A DNA stretch of 56,495 nt from an uncultured Actinomycetota bacterium (lineage in GTDB: Bacteria > Actinomycetota > Humimicrobiia > Humimicrobiales > Humimicrobiaceae). The stretch is taken from the NCBI GenBank assembly GCA_964392345.1, contig CAYMPQ010000002.1, positions 1-56,495 of the forward strand, in the 5' to 3' direction. How positions within the stretch are numbered: position 1 is the first letter of the stretch; each line of letters starts with the position of its first letter. The notes under the pieces are model-generated. The model ran no database searches. It worked only from the letters and a program-made list of their open reading frames with translations, and was not told the origin of the DNA. Shown piece by piece: positions 45,950-55,048 of the stretch. Both the position numbers and the translations under genes were made by a program.

Positions 45950-46024
<75 letters not shown>

Positions 46025-46079
46025 ATATTAATACTTGTTTTAATACTTATAACTATATAATTACTTATATTTTATTTAT

Positions 46080-46100
46080 GGTTCGAATCCTCTCTCCCCA
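46080..46100 (+). repeat. Orphan tRNA 3'-end fragment (T-loop plus acceptor-like sequence)
   Basis: GGTTCGAATCCTCTCTCCCCA contains the canonical GGTTCGAATCC T-loop followed by a C-rich acceptor-like tail. The upstream sequence is pure AT-rich DNA that cannot form the rest of a tRNA. Confidence 0.6.
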
Positions 46101-46268
46101 ATATTTAACGTTATTTTATATTGATTAAAAAAATTTTACATAAATATCAATAGTATTATAATTAAAAGATAAATATAGAGAAATATTGTTATAAATTTTA
46201 TTTATCAGATATTAATCGGTAGATAAGTTTGATTATATAAATAAAACTAATATAAACCACAATTTTAA

Positions 46269-47237
46269 ATGACTACTAATAAAATAGAAAAATGGATTGG
46301 TTTTTACACAACTAATTCATTTTTAATTAATAAAGAACCAAAAATAATAAAACCAAGTTCTCCTCTATCTTGGGATATTAGTAGAATTTTTAAATTATTA
46401 TCTAATGCTGAGATTGAATATGATTGCAAATTTTACAATTTAAGAATTTTTAATGGTGGGATATTTGCTTTAAAATTAGAAGAAATATCTTTTGAAAAAC
46501 CTGACAATGATTTGATTATAAGAAAAATATTAAAAGGTATCACCTATTTAAATGCAATTCAATTATTATTTGAATCTTCTTTTCAAAAGCATAAAAAACT
46601 TGGTGGTTATTTTACTACTTATGAAATAAATTCTCAAAACACTTTAAAACTTGATTATGAAGGAAATAAATTAAAAGGTATATCAGGTCCTTTAAGAGAG
46701 GAATTTTATACTAATATGAGAATTGAAAATAGTATTAATACCAATAAAATAATTTTTGATGATTTAAATAATGATTTAGAGAATATTTCTAAAGATTATA
46801 GGAATGTCGAAATTCTAGCTGAAATTAGTAAGTCACTATCAGAATATAAAATTATGAACTTTTCATATTCTACACTTTTATCATGGATTATTATTGAAAA
46901 ATTTTTAAATATATTGTGGTCTGATTTATTGAAAAGTAAGCAAAACACGGCAATAATTAATAGAACAATTAGAGAGGATTTAGAAGACAATAGTGATTTT
47001 ACAGCATATATAAAATCAAATGTTTTAAAATTGTTTAACATTTATGACACGGAAATCTTTAATAAAATCAACAGAGTAAGAAAAGAAAGAAATGATATTA
47101 TGCATCCAAAATCAAAAAATAATAATGATAATAACTTTAAAATTTGCCAAGATGCTTTTGATATTATTACTATCTTTTTAGGAAAAAATATGAGTCTAGA
47201 TTTAAAATTTGATCTTAGTTTTGGCTATCAAATATAG
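46269..47237 (+). CDS. Hypothetical protein with a C-terminal HEPN-like region (RNxxxH motif)
   Basis: 322 aa. The helical C-terminal half carries INRVRKERNDIMHP (R-N-D-I-M-H, that is Rx4H) about 45 aa from the C-terminus, where HEPN active sites usually sit. The N-terminal half was not recognised. No SD sequence is present and the coding DNA is extremely AT-rich. Confidence 0.4.
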   Translation: MTTNKIEKWIGFYTTNSFLINKEPKIIKPSSPLSWDISRIFKLLSNAEIEYDCKFYNLRIFNGGIFALKLEEISFEKPDNDLIIRKILKGITYLNAIQLLFESSFQKHKKLGGYFTTYEINSQNTLKLDYEGNKLKGISGPLREEFYTNMRIENSINTNKIIFDDLNNDLENISKDYRNVEILAEISKSLSEYKIMNFSYSTLLSWIIIEKFLNILWSDLLKSKQNTAIINRTIREDLEDNSDFTAYIKSNVLKLFNIYDTEIFNKINRVRKERNDIMHPKSKNNNDNNFKICQDAFDIITIFLGKNMSLDLKFDLSFGYQI

Positions 47238-47407
47238 GTAAACTATTTTATCATTTAAAATCTATTTATTATACCTAGCTACTAATAATTATCCTTAGTA
47301 TTTTAATTATGTCACTAATTTCTTTATCTAATTTTGAAAATAAAGAAATAGGGTATCTAACTAGGAGCTAACATTGTCTGAAATGATAGTTCTTTAATAG
47401 TTTTTTT

Positions 47408-47446
47408 GAAATAAGAAATTCGAAATATGTCAACTAAGAGGAGGCA
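47408..47446 (+). repeat. Island repeat Ra (pairs with Rf)
   Basis: GAAATAAGAAATTCGAAATATGTCAACTAAGAGGAGGCA matches 33 of 39 positions in 54985-55023, in the same orientation. Confidence 0.8.
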
Positions 47447-47573
47447 ATTTAAGCACTTATTAAATTTAATGCTGATAAAAAATAGTAAGTGCAATTTTAT
47501 TTAAGTTACTATGATAACTTAACTTACAATAGCAAAGTCTTCTTTTATTAATTTAATTTGGGGAATTAATTCG

Positions 47574-47620
47574 ATAATATTTTGATAATAAATAGTTCTA
47601 AATGTGTTCAATATCCCTAG
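47574..47620 (+). repeat. Island repeat Rb (pairs with Re)
   Basis: ATAATATTTTGATAATAAATAGTTCTAAATGTGTTCAATATCCCTAG aligns with 54855-54901, sharing the core TAGTTCT(T)AAAT(G)TGTTCAATATC. Confidence 0.7.
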
Positions 47621-47686
47621 GTATGATGATAGAATAAGGTAAGCACTTCAGGCTTTAATTACCATTGAAGGTTTGATTATTTGTTA

Positions 47687-47695
47687 TGGTATAAT
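47687..47695 (+). promoter_or_regulatory. Extended -10 promoter element upstream of the TIR-like gene
   Basis: TGGTATAAT lies 33 nt upstream of the ATG at 47728. Confidence 0.35.
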
Positions 47696-47727
47696 ATAAA
47701 AAATCAAATATTTTTAAGTATTATTAT

Positions 47728-48855
47728 ATGGAACAAAATATTGAAAAAAAATTAAAGAAATATTCAGAATTAATTAAGTTAGGAGAACAAACTCTCAAAA
47801 AACATGGTTGGAACGAGGATGATGATAACATGTATAGGAGAGGAGGCCCTTCAAATGAAGATTATTCAGGATATCTTAATTCATGTATTTCATTAATTGA
47901 AGATACTTTAGGAAATGACAGCTCTTCTTATTTAATGATTAAAAAGTTAATAGACAACGAAAAGACATCAAGAAATCCATATTACTTTGCAGATTGTTTT
48001 GGAATTATAAAAACTGCCCTTGGGCTTTATAAGGAAAAAATTATGTCAGAAAATAAACTAGATATTCTATTAGATAAAATAGAAGAATTATACAATATAT
48101 CGAGTTGCTCTAATGATACTACAAAAATCGATACTGATTTTAAGTTATGGCATAGAGATCTCAAAAATATATTTGAAACTTATGAATTTGTTAACGATAC
48201 CTATGCAAAGTTATTTAATATTTTAGAATTTAAAGTAGTAGATGGAAATAAAAGATATGAGGGGCTTACTGAAAAAGAAAGTTTTGGCCAAGATATTGGT
48301 CTTTGTAGGGATATTTTAAAAATGATGGAACGAGATATAAATACTTATGGTGAGCGAGCTGTAAAAATAAAAGAACAAAAAAAAATAAAAAAAATAGGTA
48401 CAATTTCTGATAATAAGCAAGTTTTTATAGTTCATGGCCATAATATAGAAAAGAAAGAAACAACTGCAAGGATAATAGAAAAATTAGGTCTAGAACCAAT
48501 TATACTTCATGAGCAAGCTAATATGGGAAGGACAATTTTTAAAAAGTTATCCGAATATTCTGATGTTGTTGGTTTTGCGATTATATTATTAACTTCAGAT
48601 GACATTGGAAAAGAGAAAGATGAGTCAGATTTAAAACCAAGGGCAAGACAGAATGTTATTTTTGAATTAGGATATTTTTTAGCTAAATTAGGCGATAAAA
48701 ATGTTTGTGCACTTTACGAAAATGGAGTTGAAATACCAACAGATTATATAGGTGTAACATTTATCCAATTTGATTCTGCAGGAAAATGGAAATTTGAATT
48801 GGTAAGAGAATTAAAAGCTGCAGGATTTAATGTTAATGCTAATAATATTTTATAA
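47728..48855 (+). CDS. Two-domain protein: an unknown helical N-terminal domain (about 225 aa) plus a C-terminal Cap12/PycTIR-type TIR-like domain
   Basis: The C-terminus reads QVFIVHGHNIEKKETTARIIEKLGLEPIILHEQANMGRTIFKKLSEYSDVVGFAIILLTSDDIG...LKPRARQNVIFELGYFLAKLGDKNVCALYENGVEIPTDYIGV. This matches, block for block, the 'nucleotide-binding protein containing TIR-like domain' family (Pfam PF10137), including the FELG glutamate. Confidence 0.8.
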   Translation: MEQNIEKKLKKYSELIKLGEQTLKKHGWNEDDDNMYRRGGPSNEDYSGYLNSCISLIEDTLGNDSSSYLMIKKLIDNEKTSRNPYYFADCFGIIKTALGLYKEKIMSENKLDILLDKIEELYNISSCSNDTTKIDTDFKLWHRDLKNIFETYEFVNDTYAKLFNILEFKVVDGNKRYEGLTEKESFGQDIGLCRDILKMMERDINTYGERAVKIKEQKKIKKIGTISDNKQVFIVHGHNIEKKETTARIIEKLGLEPIILHEQANMGRTIFKKLSEYSDVVGFAIILLTSDDIGKEKDESDLKPRARQNVIFELGYFLAKLGDKNVCALYENGVEIPTDYIGVTFIQFDSAGKWKFELVRELKAAGFNVNANNIL

Positions 48856-48872
48856 TTTTATACTCTTCTAAA

Positions 48873-48936
48873 AAAATCTTTTTCAAATTGATAATATCTC
48901 TTAAAAATTGGTTCGAAATTTCAATATTTGGGGCAG
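48873..48936 (+). repeat. Island repeat Rc (pairs with Rd)
   Basis: AAATCTTTTTCAAATTGATAATATCTCTTAAAAATTGGTTCGAAATTTCAATATTTGGGGCAGC. The 19-nt core AAATTGGTTCGAAATTTCA (48904-48922) is identical to 50271-50289. Confidence 0.85.
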
Positions 48937-48988
48937 CTATTAATGAAACAAGGTTAAGGTTGACATCCTAGTATAATTAAGTTGGTTG

Positions 48989-50068
48989 CTAATTAAGAAT
49001 TATCTTCTTTAATGTACACATAAAATATTTTTCCTCACTAAATAAAATTGCCAGAATTTGATTTGAAGTTAATTGTGATGATACTGATTTAAACAAAATA
49101 GTAATTGAAATATTGGATAATTTATCATTTATAGTTAAATGATTATACATATTAATTTTCTGCCAGTCATATAAAGAATCCAAAACATCAACATCAGAAA
49201 GGTTTTTATGCAACCAAAAATCTAGATAGAGATCTTGATTTTTACTAATTACATCTAAATTAATTATTATAAATGTAATTGCAGGAATACTACCTTTAAT
49301 AATTTTTGGAGGATTTTTATCTAATTCAATGAAATTAAAATTTTGATTTAATGGTGGAGGACCAATATCTTTTAAATTGTCAAAATTAAAATGAGTAACC
49401 AATGATAAAAATGGGAATATCTTATTATTCTCAATATCCTTGATATCATTTGTTTTAAGGTTTGAAATAAAATAATAACCTAATTTATCTTTTGAATGAA
49501 CTTCCCCATTTTTTGGATGATAACTTATATGAGGTGAATAAAACTTACCTTTTACCGAATCAAGTTTTATATTACTTATACCCTTAATAATTTCATTTGA
49601 TGTATAGTACTCGCTTGCTAAATATTCACCTTCAAAATTGATATATATTGAATCGTCATTTCCTCTTTGAATTGTTAATAATTTATGATATTTATTTTTT
49701 TTCTTTAAGACCATTGTTACTGGTGGGAATTTCTGATGTCCAATAAGAAAATATTTTGGTTCTTCAACATTAAACCTTATTAAAAATTCTCTATAATAAG
49801 ACAATGCACCAGAACTATCAAAATAATAAGTATCAAATTTATCTAATTCCAACATTGATTCTTTAGGGTTTTTAAAATTAAAGCTCTTAAAAGTAAGCTT
49901 ATTATTGGGAAAAGCTTGTTTAAAAATCTTTTCTTTTTTATAACTATAATTTCTAAACCATAAAATATTAATAAGGCTCTTATTATTAAATATTTCTAAT
50001 AATTGGTCTTTAATTTCTTTAACCAAAGGGATTTTAGCAACGATGTATAATTTTAACTGTGATTTCAT
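48989..50068 (-). CDS. Hypothetical protein, 359 aa, no recognisable motif
   Basis: A long ORF in DNA where stop codons are otherwise very frequent. No SD sequence is present. It is the only gene between repeats Rc and Rd. Confidence 0.5.
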   Translation of the reverse strand: MKSQLKLYIVAKIPLVKEIKDQLLEIFNNKSLINILWFRNYSYKKEKIFKQAFPNNKLTFKSFNFKNPKESMLELDKFDTYYFDSSGALSYYREFLIRFNVEEPKYFLIGHQKFPPVTMVLKKKNKYHKLLTIQRGNDDSIYINFEGEYLASEYYTSNEIIKGISNIKLDSVKGKFYSPHISYHPKNGEVHSKDKLGYYFISNLKTNDIKDIENNKIFPFLSLVTHFNFDNLKDIGPPPLNQNFNFIELDKNPPKIIKGSIPAITFIIINLDVISKNQDLYLDFWLHKNLSDVDVLDSLYDWQKINMYNHLTINDKLSNISITILFKSVSSQLTSNQILAILFSEEKYFMCTLKKIILN

Positions 50069-50241
50069 ATTTTTAATTTAAATTTGTAGTTTAATCTGTA
50101 GTATATTTTAGAGCATTTTACAATTATTTGGCACAAACATTATATTTGTGGACCATATAGCAAATCATTAGTAATATTCTATTTATAATCTACTCACTAT
50201 TTCAAGTCAAAATAAATTCTTTATAATATTAGATAAAGAAT

Positions 50242-50304
50242 AAATCTTTCAAACCAATTAATTCCTTTATAAATTGGTTCGAAATTTCACATCTTGGGGG
50301 AACC
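50242..50304 (+). repeat. Island repeat Rd (pairs with Rc)
   Basis: AAATCTTTCAAACCAATTAATTCCTTTATAAATTGGTTCGAAATTTCACATCTTGGGGGAACCA, ending in a tRNA-like GGGGGA-A-CCA. Confidence 0.85.
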
Positions 50305-50748
50305 AATATGTATAGTTTTTCTCTCTAAAAAGGGTTTGATAAGTACTTTCTTTAATGTAAATGATTAAACCTTTATTAGAAAAACTTACCTGTAGTATTC
50401 GTAAACTGTTTGATATATTAATATTATTCATTTTACTTCGAATAATTAACTGAACTTTTTATATTATTAATTAATATACCTTTGCAGCCAAAAACACTGA
50501 GGAGGTTCAATCAATAAATTCAGGAACTGGGAAAGGATGATATTGTAGAGATATACAAATTAGCCAAATAATGATATTAGTTATAAGATAACAAAGTATT
50601 AGTATTAATACAGGAAATAATTATAAACATTTAATATTCATATTTATTATTGTATAGAGCAGGATCTCCTCTCTATGCAATAATAATTTATGCAATACAA
50701 ATTACCTTTTTTATAAAAATATAAGTATTAAATATTTGGAGGTAAATA

Positions 50749-51294
50749 ATGGAAAGAAGAAAAATATTGATCTGGGAGATGCTTGGAATACTATTTACAT
50801 TTATGGTTGGAGCACTTCTTCACTTTACATTTGAGCTTTCTGGGTTCTGGAAACCGATGGCTTTAATAAGTGGGGTAAATGAAAGTGTATGGGAGCATCT
50901 TAAAATAGGTTTCTGGCCAGCTTTTGTGTGGGCCACAATAGAGTTCTTTATATTCGGAAAGAAAGTCAAGAATTTCTTCTTTGCAAAAGGCATTTCATAT
51001 CTGGTACTTCCTGTCACGATTGTCGCACTTTTTTATGGATATACCATAATATTTAATATCGAGAGTCTGGCTATAGATATAGTAATATTTTTTATTGCCA
51101 TAGCTGCCGCCCAGATAGTAAGCTACCGGCTTATGCTTATCAGGGAAAGAAAAATATCCATTAATGTCCTTGGAGCAGTAATAATAATTATAAATATAAT
51201 CCTTTTCAGTCTTCTCAGTTATTTTCCTCCAAAGTGCCCTATCTTTAAGGACCCAGTCACTGGAGGATATGGAATCGTGGAGCATCACCACTAG
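50749..51294 (+). CDS. Small polytopic membrane protein (DUF6512-like)
   Basis: 181 aa with about five TM helices and the motif NESVWEHLK after the first helix. A ggagg RBS is present. Confidence 0.5.
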   Translation: MERRKILIWEMLGILFTFMVGALLHFTFELSGFWKPMALISGVNESVWEHLKIGFWPAFVWATIEFFIFGKKVKNFFFAKGISYLVLPVTIVALFYGYTIIFNIESLAIDIVIFFIAIAAAQIVSYRLMLIRERKISINVLGAVIIIINIILFSLLSYFPPKCPIFKDPVTGGYGIVEHHH

Positions 51295-51716
51295 GAGGTA
51301 TCTTCTTGGTGGGTAAATAAATTTAAATAGTTATTTATTCTTCAGACTTTATCAGAATAACATAATTTCTAATCTAAAAGTTCTCCTAAATAAATAAAGA
51401 TTAGCATGGTGGGGTAGATAATAATTAAACCTATACAGCTAACTCTGGGATAAAAATTTCCTCATTTAGCAGTAAAATCTTGGTTTTAACATTGTCCACA
51501 GTGGCCAGCCACTGTGGACGAATAGGTCCAAGATTAGAAGAAACTCCATTATATAGTAGGTTTTCTGTTGGTTTTAACCCTAAATACTCCTTTTCTAAGG
51601 CAGGATAATCTTCAGTAAATTAATTAAGTTCTTTATAAGATAATAAGACCCCATTATTTCAATGAGGTCTTATTATTCGAAATCAATAATTAATAAAATC
51701 TATTATTTTAACGTTT

Positions 51717-54567: not shown

Positions 54568-54854
54568 TTACCTCTATAAATTTAATTTGGGCAAGACACT
54601 TCATATAGTTCGTTTCTATACGAATTGTTTTTGTAAATCCAATCTTTTATTGATATTTTACGTAGTTATATTGAACTCTAATTATTATTAAATTATCTTG
54701 ATTATAACATATTCCACTTCTTACTTTTAATAAAAGTAGTATTTAAAAGGTATTAGTAAAAATTAAATATATAACTGGCTATATTCTTGCCCATAATATG
54801 TCAGGAAGCCAATTCTAAGTTAGTTTTTACTGAGTTTATTTGTGAAGATATTCA

Positions 54855-54901
54855 ATAATATTATGGTAATATTTAGTTCTTAAATTGTTCAATATCTCCA
54901 G
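54855..54901 (+). repeat. Island repeat Re (pairs with Rb)
   Basis: ATAATATTATGGTAATATTTAGTTCTTAAATTGTTCAATATCTCCAG. Confidence 0.7.
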
Positions 54902-54984
54902 CCAGAAGATACAACAATTCATTATGCAAATATAAAATTAGTTTTAATTTTTTCTAATTCATCTTCTAAATTTGTGAATTCATT

Positions 54985-55023
54985 AAAATAAAAAGTTCGA
55001 AATGTGTCAACTAAGGGGAGCCA
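54985..55023 (+). repeat. Island repeat Rf (pairs with Ra); contains a copy of the last 9 nt of tRNA-Asn
   Basis: AAAATAAAAAGTTCGAAATGTGTCAACTAAGGGGAGCCA. The GGGGAGCCA at 55015-55023 equals tRNA-Asn 46016-46024, in the same orientation. Confidence 0.75.
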
Positions 55024-55048
55024 GCGAATTTTGATTCTTCGTCAAAAA

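Follow-up and report, generated by a model that had tools for sequence, protein, structure and literature searches.

Do three adjacent AT-rich genes behind a tRNA gene make up one anti-phage system, or were they gathered there one by one? This question is raised by contig CAYMPQ010000002.1 of an uncultured Actinomycetota bacterium, of which positions 1 to 56,495, a stretch of 56,495 nucleotides (nt), are referred to here as the window. An earlier note, made from the letters of this DNA, had described three long open reading frames (ORFs) following a tRNA-Asn gene, here termed genes A, B and C, and had proposed that together they form a single uncharacterised defence locus encoding a HEPN-like protein, a TIR-like protein and a third protein of no recognisable type. 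Our analysis points to the second answer. With a probability of about 0.6, we read positions 46025-50748 as an island that was acquired horizontally, sits at the 3' end of tRNA-Asn and varies between strains, a mosaic put together from three or more independent single-gene cassettes, in which A would encode a HEPN RNase and B an effector of the PDC-S35 type, and in which a short repeated element is the probable site of exchange. The anchor and the genes of the island are as follows.

45950-46024, forward strand: tRNA-Asn(GTT), called by ARAGORN and matching the Rfam tRNA family at 74 bits; the anchor of the island
46269-47237, forward strand: gene A, an ORF of 322 amino acids
47728-48855, forward strand: gene B, an ORF of 375 amino acids
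48989-50068, reverse strand: gene C, an ORF of 359 amino acids
50306-50748, no strand: AT-rich non-coding tail of the island; the next gene starts at 50749 and is preceded by GGAGG

The island stands out from its surroundings in composition. Its GC fraction is 0.235 across 46025-50748, compared with a mean of 0.351 (standard deviation 0.032) in 1-kb windows elsewhere, and of 98 windows outside it all but 2 exceed the highest window of the island; the earlier description of three long AT-rich ORFs behind tRNA-Asn thus agrees with our coordinates and GC content. At this base composition a stop codon is expected about every 10 codons, so that open frames of 322-375 codons would each arise by chance with a probability of 1e-15 to 1e-17, and because this is so improbable A, B and C are genes and not noise. 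For B and C, the ratio of non-synonymous to synonymous substitution rates (dN/dS) is 0.23-0.36, indicating purifying selection. Reading the 20 nt upstream of each start codon bears out a further observation of the earlier note, namely that all three genes lack a ribosome-binding site of the GGAGG type (neither GGAGG nor AGGAG is present), unlike the core gene at 50749. A scan for promoters and terminators was uninformative in such AT-rich DNA (44 promoter-like sites versus 40.6 expected).

The left border of the island is exactly the 3' end of tRNA-Asn, which itself follows dnaG and sigA. Two contigs from other samples that encode an identical SigA protein, L027 and L030, share 99.7-99.9% identity with the window as far as position 46025, one base beyond the tRNA, and are unrelated to it thereafter. 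Two different sequences follow tRNA-Asn on these contigs (L027 11244-11374 and L030 2550-2775), which end 131 and 226 nt past the tRNA, respectively. Since L027, L030 and the window all differ after tRNA-Asn, the species carries at least three alleles of this hotspot, and the island is strain-variable. Four more contigs end at or just before the same junction, the usual assembly signature of strain heterogeneity. A trace of a second tRNA lies 55 nt after tRNA-Asn:

46080-46100, forward strand: partial tRNA-Gln, 3' part (GGTTCGAATCCTCTCTCCCCA), identical at 21/21 positions to the 3' part of the tRNA-Gln in L007 and L015; an att-type scar

In L018 a copy of this partial tRNA with one mismatch precedes the B cassette by about 10 nt, and a complete tRNA-Gln lies upstream of a homologous array in L015. 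The suggestion that this is a tRNA-flanking hotspot of the kind typical for defence genes is therefore well founded: the island is foreign and varies between strains, and its sister arrays are full of defence genes.

If the three genes acted together, their relatives would be expected to travel together, and they do not. Searches with phmmer found no B-like or C-like protein near six relatives of A, and the same was true of a seventh locus, on a Paraburkholderia plasmid; a scan of genomes with a 10-sequence A alignment had returned 4 loci. Across the seven A-family loci and the window there is no conserved neighbour, and one of the A relatives adjoins HNH nucleases, a TrlF ATPase and the bacteriophage exclusion (BREX) protein PglX. 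Profiles of A and C detected nothing in the loci of the closest relatives of B. These relatives (73-78% identical) occupy three other, mutually unrelated contexts without A or C, as fits a single-gene unit: one lies after a Type II methyltransferase and a restriction enzyme (REase_II, E = 1e-105), near a BrnT/BrnA pair and insertion sequence (IS) elements; one lies before genes matching PDC-S05 and PDC-S32; and one follows a gene for an AAA_15 ATPase that resembles AriA, GajA and Old. Relatives of C are likewise located at other loci, away from A and B. No cas genes were seen near the A-family loci or the loci of the B relatives. Judged by these comparisons, A, B and C are three separately acquired single-gene cassettes and not one three-gene system or operon. 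A more modest claim, that the DNA belongs to a defence island, is supported by the neighbourhoods.

Gene B is the best placed of the three. It carries the CAP12/PycTIR TIR domain of Pfam (PF10137) at residues 231-349 (nt 48418-48774, E = 1.7e-36), and five PADLOC models of PDC-S35 match it. The best of these, PDLC05005 (E = 1.9e-73), covers residues 109-374 of B and positions 5-262 of the 264 in the profile; the other four range from 2.4e-41 to 8.7e-70, so that four of the five lie between 1e-42 and 2e-73. The PycTIR model (E = 6e-9) and generic TIR effector models are far weaker, and the NCBIfam Cap12 equivalogs reach 42-48 bits, on the TIR part only. Among proteins of solved structure, the TIR-like domain aligns to Cap12 (9lmq, 7un8) and to PycTIR (8jsj, E = 0.003), with NVIFELG of B standing opposite NVVFEFG in the Cap12 alignment. 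The glutamate of this motif, E313 (nt 48664-48666), is invariant in 20 diverse sequences of the family, as are F233, H236, G237, R305, R307, Q308 and N309, and we take the TIR glutamate aligned at this position to be the catalytic residue of TIR NADases. Both the conservation of this glutamate and an NADase activity that depends on oligomerisation have been described for the TIR clade to which B belongs (bioRxiv 10.64898/2026.04.30.722052). The earlier note had thus recognised a Cap12/PycTIR-type TIR-like domain without a cyclase partner correctly, and Pfam, PADLOC, NCBIfam and the Protein Data Bank (PDB) structures agree on it; its description of B as an orphan does not hold, given more than 5,400 relatives.

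PDC-S35 is a single-gene phage-defence candidate of PADLOC (Payne et al., bioRxiv 10.1101/2024.01.29.577857), one of a set of 145 PDC candidates that were found embedded in BREX, defence island system associated with restriction-modification (DISARM) and Type I restriction-modification loci. On its profile matches B is a member of this catalogued family, so that the statement that no named system corresponds to the locus has to be withdrawn for B, at least as far as a candidate family is concerned. Because PDC systems are candidates without experimental test, B is catalogued but unproven; a literature search for PDC-S35 by name found no mention. Like PDC-S35, B combines a helical region with a following PF10137 domain in a single gene without a partner. 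It differs by an additional N-terminal extension of about 105 residues, giving a layout of extension (approximately 1-105), helical middle and TIR-like domain (231-349); this extension is common to B and its three close relatives alone and absent from the other 16 sequences aligned. B thus appears to be a PDC-S35 member with N-terminal variation, and its own dN/dS of 0.23-0.36 spans the full range given above.

Although B shares the TIR clade PF10137 and the conserved FE(F/L)G glutamate with Cap12 of the cyclic-oligonucleotide-based antiphage signalling system (CBASS) and with PycTIR of Pycsar, it has neither a STING or SAVED domain nor a domain sensing cyclic nucleoside monophosphates, and its NCBIfam Cap12 score of 47.7 bits compares with a cut-off of 450. 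Its neighbours A and C show no match to a CD-NTase, and the island holds no cyclase of the Pycsar type. In the case of Thoeris, no Thoeris model was among the PADLOC hits for A, B and C, and the TIR domain of B is PF10137 and not PF08937 as in ThsB. More broadly, profile searches of the island genes and the four genes downstream detected no CD-NTase, cyclase, ThsA, STING or SAVED. Because the defining partner features of these systems were sought and are not present, B does not appear to be a component of CBASS, Pycsar or Thoeris. Its likely chemistry, by likeness to Cap12 and PycTIR, is the oligomerisation-dependent hydrolysis of NAD+. We envisage the helical N-terminal part as a sensor or regulator, to which the additional 105 residues would contribute a further regulatory module; the TIR-like domain would then oligomerise and hydrolyse NAD+, leading to abortive infection without a cyclic-nucleotide partner.

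Gene A is more remote from anything named. The protein itself has no match in Pfam, NCBIfam, PADLOC v2 or PHROGs, and a word-indexed search of 5.8 billion proteins returned A alone. An exhaustive HMMER search of 1.84 billion cluster representatives, however, recovered 331 relatives at E <= 1e-3, 89 of them at E <= 1e-10. These are counted as clusters at 50% identity, so that the family has at least 331 such clusters; most members are 320-360 residues long and align end to end. A was therefore no more of an orphan than B was. It should be noted that a word-indexed search can make AT-rich, fast-evolving proteins look like orphans, as the counts for A (0 versus 331 relatives) illustrate. A search for A in viral contigs found none.

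An alignment of 40 family members (mean column identity 31%) has seven invariant residues: N95, W206, E210, R271, R274, N275 and H279. The last four form the motif RxxRNxxxH (R271-x2-R274-N275-x3-H279, nt 47079-47105), whose RNxxxH part, R274-N275-D-I-M-H279, lies at nt 47088-47105, and since R271, R274, N275 and H279 are invariant we equate it with the Rx4-6H signature of HEPN RNases. Pfam matches among the same 40 relatives point the same way, with HEPN_RiboL-PSP in 10/40 (best E = 1.2e-5), DUF4145 in 7/40, HEPN_Swt1 in 3/40 and one match each to HepT-like and RNase 2-5A. The Csx1/Csm6 HEPN models of PADLOC drew weak matches from a few relatives, and HEC-08 was weak in 3/40. An AlphaFold2 (AF2) model built from the 40-sequence alignment reached a predicted local distance difference test score (pLDDT) of 90.7 and a predicted template modelling score (pTM) of 0.91, while a single-sequence model was unusable (pLDDT 33). 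It comprises an alpha/beta N-terminal domain at approximately 1-155 and a helical C-terminal domain at 157-308 (nt 46737-47192) that holds the motif. In a Foldseek search of the PDB, the matches that superposed sensibly were all HEPN proteins, namely 2hsb (probability 0.91, template modelling (TM) score 0.65), 2q00, the HEPN-MNT toxins 7bxo and 5yep, and 7ae6; TM scores were 0.5-0.65 and probabilities 0.7-0.9 (2hsb, 2q00, 7bxo), with E-values of about 1. Foldseek against the PDB gave no match for the N-terminal domain, CARF included; searches of PDB sequences with A and with the A-family profile, and of viral structures with Foldseek, returned no (significant) match. Since A falls below the Pfam thresholds and its Foldseek E-values are near 1, the HEPN call rests on the family-wide motif together with weak profile and fold matches. 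From the motif, the profiles of its relatives and the modelled fold, A is a predicted stand-alone HEPN protein of a sizeable, unnamed family, in line with the HEPN-like assignment of the earlier note.

Among described stand-alone HEPN proteins (HEC-08, PF18735, DUF4145, HEPN_Swt1 and the HEPN-MNT toxin SO_3166), A shares the invariant Rx4-6H motif, and its helical domain superposes on HEPN structures at E-values of about 1; defence by HEC-08 depends on the histidine of this motif. A differs from them in that its HEPN domain is C-terminal, behind the conserved alpha/beta domain of about 155 residues, whose fold was not recognised, and in that it has no zinc fingers, MNT partner or CARF domain. 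In contrast to HEPN-MNT toxin-antitoxin pairs, with their adjacent MNT nucleotidyltransferase, the A family has no neighbour that is conserved across the seven loci and the window. Likeness to Csm6/Csx1 is confined to weak CARF_HEPN matches of PADLOC in a few relatives, and Foldseek found no CARF match for the N-terminal domain of A. In our proposal, A would act as a stand-alone HEPN RNase whose N-terminal domain keeps the composite Rx4-6H site switched off; on a cue from a phage, cleavage of RNA would arrest the infected cell.

Gene C, for which four relatives were found, is unassigned cargo, perhaps a nuclease. No match was obtained in Pfam, NCBIfam, PADLOC or PHROGs even at E <= 10, as the earlier note had found no motif to recognise, and C and its profile have no match among PDB sequences. 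Database searches returned one cluster at 94% identity, apparently the one containing the window's own copy, and two at 51% and 47%; none was found in phage, plasmid or viral collections and contigs, and a metagenome scan returned the window's own strain alone. C is under constraint, because its dN/dS in diverged pairs is 0.23-0.31. In both L001 and L002 a relative of C is found 56 nt downstream of the 3' end of a gene for a tyrosine integrase; in L001 this gene carries a frameshift. Integrase end and C-like gene form a block of 86% nucleotide identity, and homology stops directly after the C-like gene, with different cargo beyond (L001 1856-3682; L002 1-1209 and 1406-2212). In L002 the gene that follows the 51% identical relative of C encodes a Dam-class Type II methyltransferase (PADLOC MTase_II, E = 3e-87).

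How, then, are the cassettes delimited? C is bracketed by direct repeats, as the earlier note had pointed out: GGTTCGAAATTTCA.. stands at both 48910 and 50276, with the related GGTTCGAA.. at 46080. Both the B and the C cassette end in this repeat. It forms the core of an element of about 65 nt, defined from 14 aligned copies, that consists of a conserved AT-rich leader of about 30 nt followed by the core GGTTCGAAATTTCACACCTTGGGGGAGCCA. The cassettes and element copies are listed below.

47647-48939, forward strand: B cassette, 81-83% identical at the nucleotide level to L014, L018 and L022, running from a short leader to the end of the core; blastn placed its limits at 47647, 47662 or 47668 and at 48923, 48937 or 48938
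approximately 48938-50305, C inverted inside: C cassette, delimited by comparison with L003 and by the element copies
48875-48939, forward strand: element copy 1, an AT-rich leader and the core GGTTCGAAATTTCAATATTTGGGGCAGCTA at 48910-48939
50240-50305, forward strand: element copy 2, with the core GGTTCGAAATTTCACATCTTGGGGGAACCA at 50276-50305
47417-47448, forward strand: degenerate core copy after A, TTCGAAATATGTCAACTAAGAGGAGGCAAT, 70% identical to the copy at 50278
Copies on other contigs: L018 at 11094, 13054, 14122, 14773 and 14990; L022 at 2029, 3293, 4518 and 6856; L014 at 974 and 4348; L015 at 573, 7807 and 11181; L003 at both ends

The limits of the C cassette are seen in L003, a 1.6-kb contig from another genome that matches the window at 48891-50299 alone (96%) between unrelated flanks. 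The copies keep one orientation throughout and lie at gene or cassette borders in L014/L015, L018 and L022. The genes between them may be on either strand; examples of inversion are C in the window and an ABC-F gene in L022. From copy to copy and from genome to genome, the core varies far less than the AT-rich DNA around it. Within the window, GGTTCGAAWYYTCW occurs 3 times in 56 kb, all in the island, compared with 0.13 expected. Cassettes can hold several genes, since one element-bounded unit in Candidatus Humimicrobiaceae (L014 1254-4295, with the same block in L015-L017) contains a B homologue, a Type II methyltransferase and a restriction enzyme; L015 differs from L014 by IS21-type and DDE-type insertions. 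All relatives of the cassettes that carry a label come from metagenome-assembled genomes of Candidatus Humimicrobiaceae. Rfam has no match for the element, for the repeats or for other conserved non-coding stretches, and the core was not found in viral contigs.

The element resembles two known arrangements in part. As in integron arrays, the island has single-gene cassettes that end in a recombination-site-like element, with one orientation of the element, shuffling of cassettes between genomes and a few inverted cassettes. It differs from them in that the aligned copies have no conserved hairpin and no R''/R' boxes (RYYYAAC / GTTRRRY), and no IntI or attI was seen. An attC-like hairpin or structured RNA was considered and rejected, as RNAalifold predicted 0 conserved pairs in the 14 copies on either strand. 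As in tycheposon islands, the island starts at a tRNA 3' end, is strain-variable, and has a partial tRNA as well as integrase remnants near relatives of its cargo; it differs from them in an element that cannot be recognised as a partial tRNA, in single-gene units of 1.3-1.4 kb and in the absence of an integrase from the window. The core does begin like a T-loop (TTCGAAA), and it shares with the 3' end of tRNA-Asn the ending ..GGGGAGCCA and GGTTC.A, and only these. A canonical partial tRNA is ruled out by length, the core having 21 nt after TTCGAAA where a tRNA has 16. As far as its sequence can tell, the element is attC-like in position and not in structure, and fits no known class. In the reading we prefer, a recombinase acting in trans probably uses it as the site for exchanging the B and C cassettes.

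The island invites other explanations. That A, B and C are one new three-gene defence system, with HEPN and TIR effectors and C as sensor or partner, is the reading suggested by their adjacency, their shared AT-richness and the recurrence of the arrangement in several samples of the species (the same island is present on five other contigs from at least four further samples). These contigs are, however, 99.99-100% identical to the window and hence represent one lineage sampled repeatedly. C lies on the opposite strand, the spacers of 490 nt (A-B) and 133 nt (B-C) both carry boundary elements, the B family is defined as single-gene, and relatives of the three genes never co-occur. The earlier note had named a match to a named system and homologues that never co-localise as grounds for giving up its proposal, and by these grounds the proposal is largely refuted, as B matches a catalogued family and the homologues do not meet; we consider one joint system very improbable. 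It is less far-fetched, but still unlikely, that A and B have no anti-phage role and instead act as selfish modules of the toxin or addiction type, or as cargo of a mobile element that stabilises the island. Toxins, too, use HEPN RNase and TIR NADase domains, the structural matches of A include HEPN-MNT toxins, a BrnT/BrnA pair occurs in a sister array, and TirC, of the same TIR clade as B, is spontaneously toxic. Yet no small gene that might supply an antitoxin is conserved beside A or B, both have large N-terminal domains typical of self-regulated sensors, and the sister arrays hold mainly bona fide defence genes. For C, the thought that it is a nuclease, be it an orphan restriction endonuclease of Type II or one of another kind, its cognate methyltransferase being encoded elsewhere in the genome, draws on the Dam-class methyltransferase directly downstream of its 51% relative and on the fact that restriction enzymes, like C, are typically rare and without detectable homologues. 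The methyltransferase is found in only 1 of 4 contexts, though, and tblastn found no Dam-type methyltransferase in the 56-kb window; C has no nuclease motif and no match to a PADLOC REase model, and the constant neighbour in L001 and L002 is the integrase. We rate this as improbable.

A further alternative concerns the element itself. The repeats of about 65 nt may be decayed att scars left by serial integrase insertions at tRNA genes, similar to those of tycheposons and without present function. Serial integrations that leave partial tRNAs and degraded integrases behind have been reported in Prochlorococcus (bioRxiv 10.1101/2020.12.28.424599), and the island abuts tRNA-Asn, contains a perfect 21-nt partial tRNA-Gln and has a third gene whose relatives lie behind an integrase with a frameshift. 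Randomly decaying tRNA scars are nevertheless disfavoured by four features of the element, namely a core 5 nt too long for a canonical tRNA 3' end, its far better conservation than that of its surroundings, the conserved leader of about 30 nt and the single orientation; we consider scars somewhat unlikely. At the other extreme stands a bolder proposal, which we advance tentatively and hold to be rather doubtful. According to it, the element (core GGTTCGAAATTTCACACCTTGGGGGAGCCA) would be the recombination site of an undescribed cassette-exchange system of integron-like logic, using a double-stranded motif without the attC hairpin that docks at tRNA 3' ends and a recombinase encoded elsewhere, and the A family, as one type of its cargo, would be a new stand-alone HEPN defence gene.

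Several observations weigh against the mosaic-island reading set out at the beginning. Concerning the proteins, A lies below every Pfam HEPN threshold and its structural matches have E-values near 1, most of the seven A-family contexts examined lack a clear defence neighbourhood, and no activity or phage phenotype is known for the families of A, B and C, with PDC-S35 being 1 of 145 candidates. Concerning exchange, the window's island has no recombinase (no tyrosine recombinase came up in the window when it was searched by tblastn with fragments of the L001 integrase), the copy of the element that follows A is degenerate, the B cassette has left limits that range from 47647 to 47668, and the arrays in L018 and L022 have no adjacent tRNA in the DNA examined.

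The value of the locus rests on an uncharacterised HEPN family and a cassette element, and not on a new three-gene system. With at least 331 clusters and no Pfam, NCBIfam, PADLOC v2 or PHROGs model, the A family is a candidate for a new single-gene RNase defence. The variant represented by B offers a test case for PDC-S35 and for the way in which TIR NADases of the Cap12 clade might be triggered without a cyclic-nucleotide signal. Element-bounded cassettes, which carry a restriction-modification pair, an OLD/Gabija-like ATPase, PDC-S05, PDC-S32 and PDC-S35, suggest a possible route of defence-gene turnover in an uncultured low-GC lineage; such turnover would be explained if the element is a live recombination site.

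Other features of the window lie downstream of the island. PADLOC has no match for the four genes from 50749 onward, and an exact-match look-up of the DUF6512-like protein among the downstream genes returned no record. A second AT-rich (26% GC), gene-free spacer of 480 nt is located at 54568-55048, 3' of a histidine-kinase gene. It contains a core-like copy at 54994-55023, the variant AGTTCGAAATGTGTCAACTAAGGGGAGCCA, which is close to the degenerate copy after A (47409-47443 and 54986-55020 are 88.6% identical), and may be an empty or decayed docking site. The motif TAGTTCT(T)AAAT(G)TGTTCAATATC occurs both at 47593 and at about 54875. Finally, a non-coding sequence of about 110 nt at 51403-51520, without a match in Rfam, is 77% conserved with L018 14816-14924. 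It follows the DUF6512-like gene in the window and lies between two element copies in L018, and the window's copy has a perfect hairpin of 9 bp at its end, CCACAGTGG-CCAG-CCACTGTGG.

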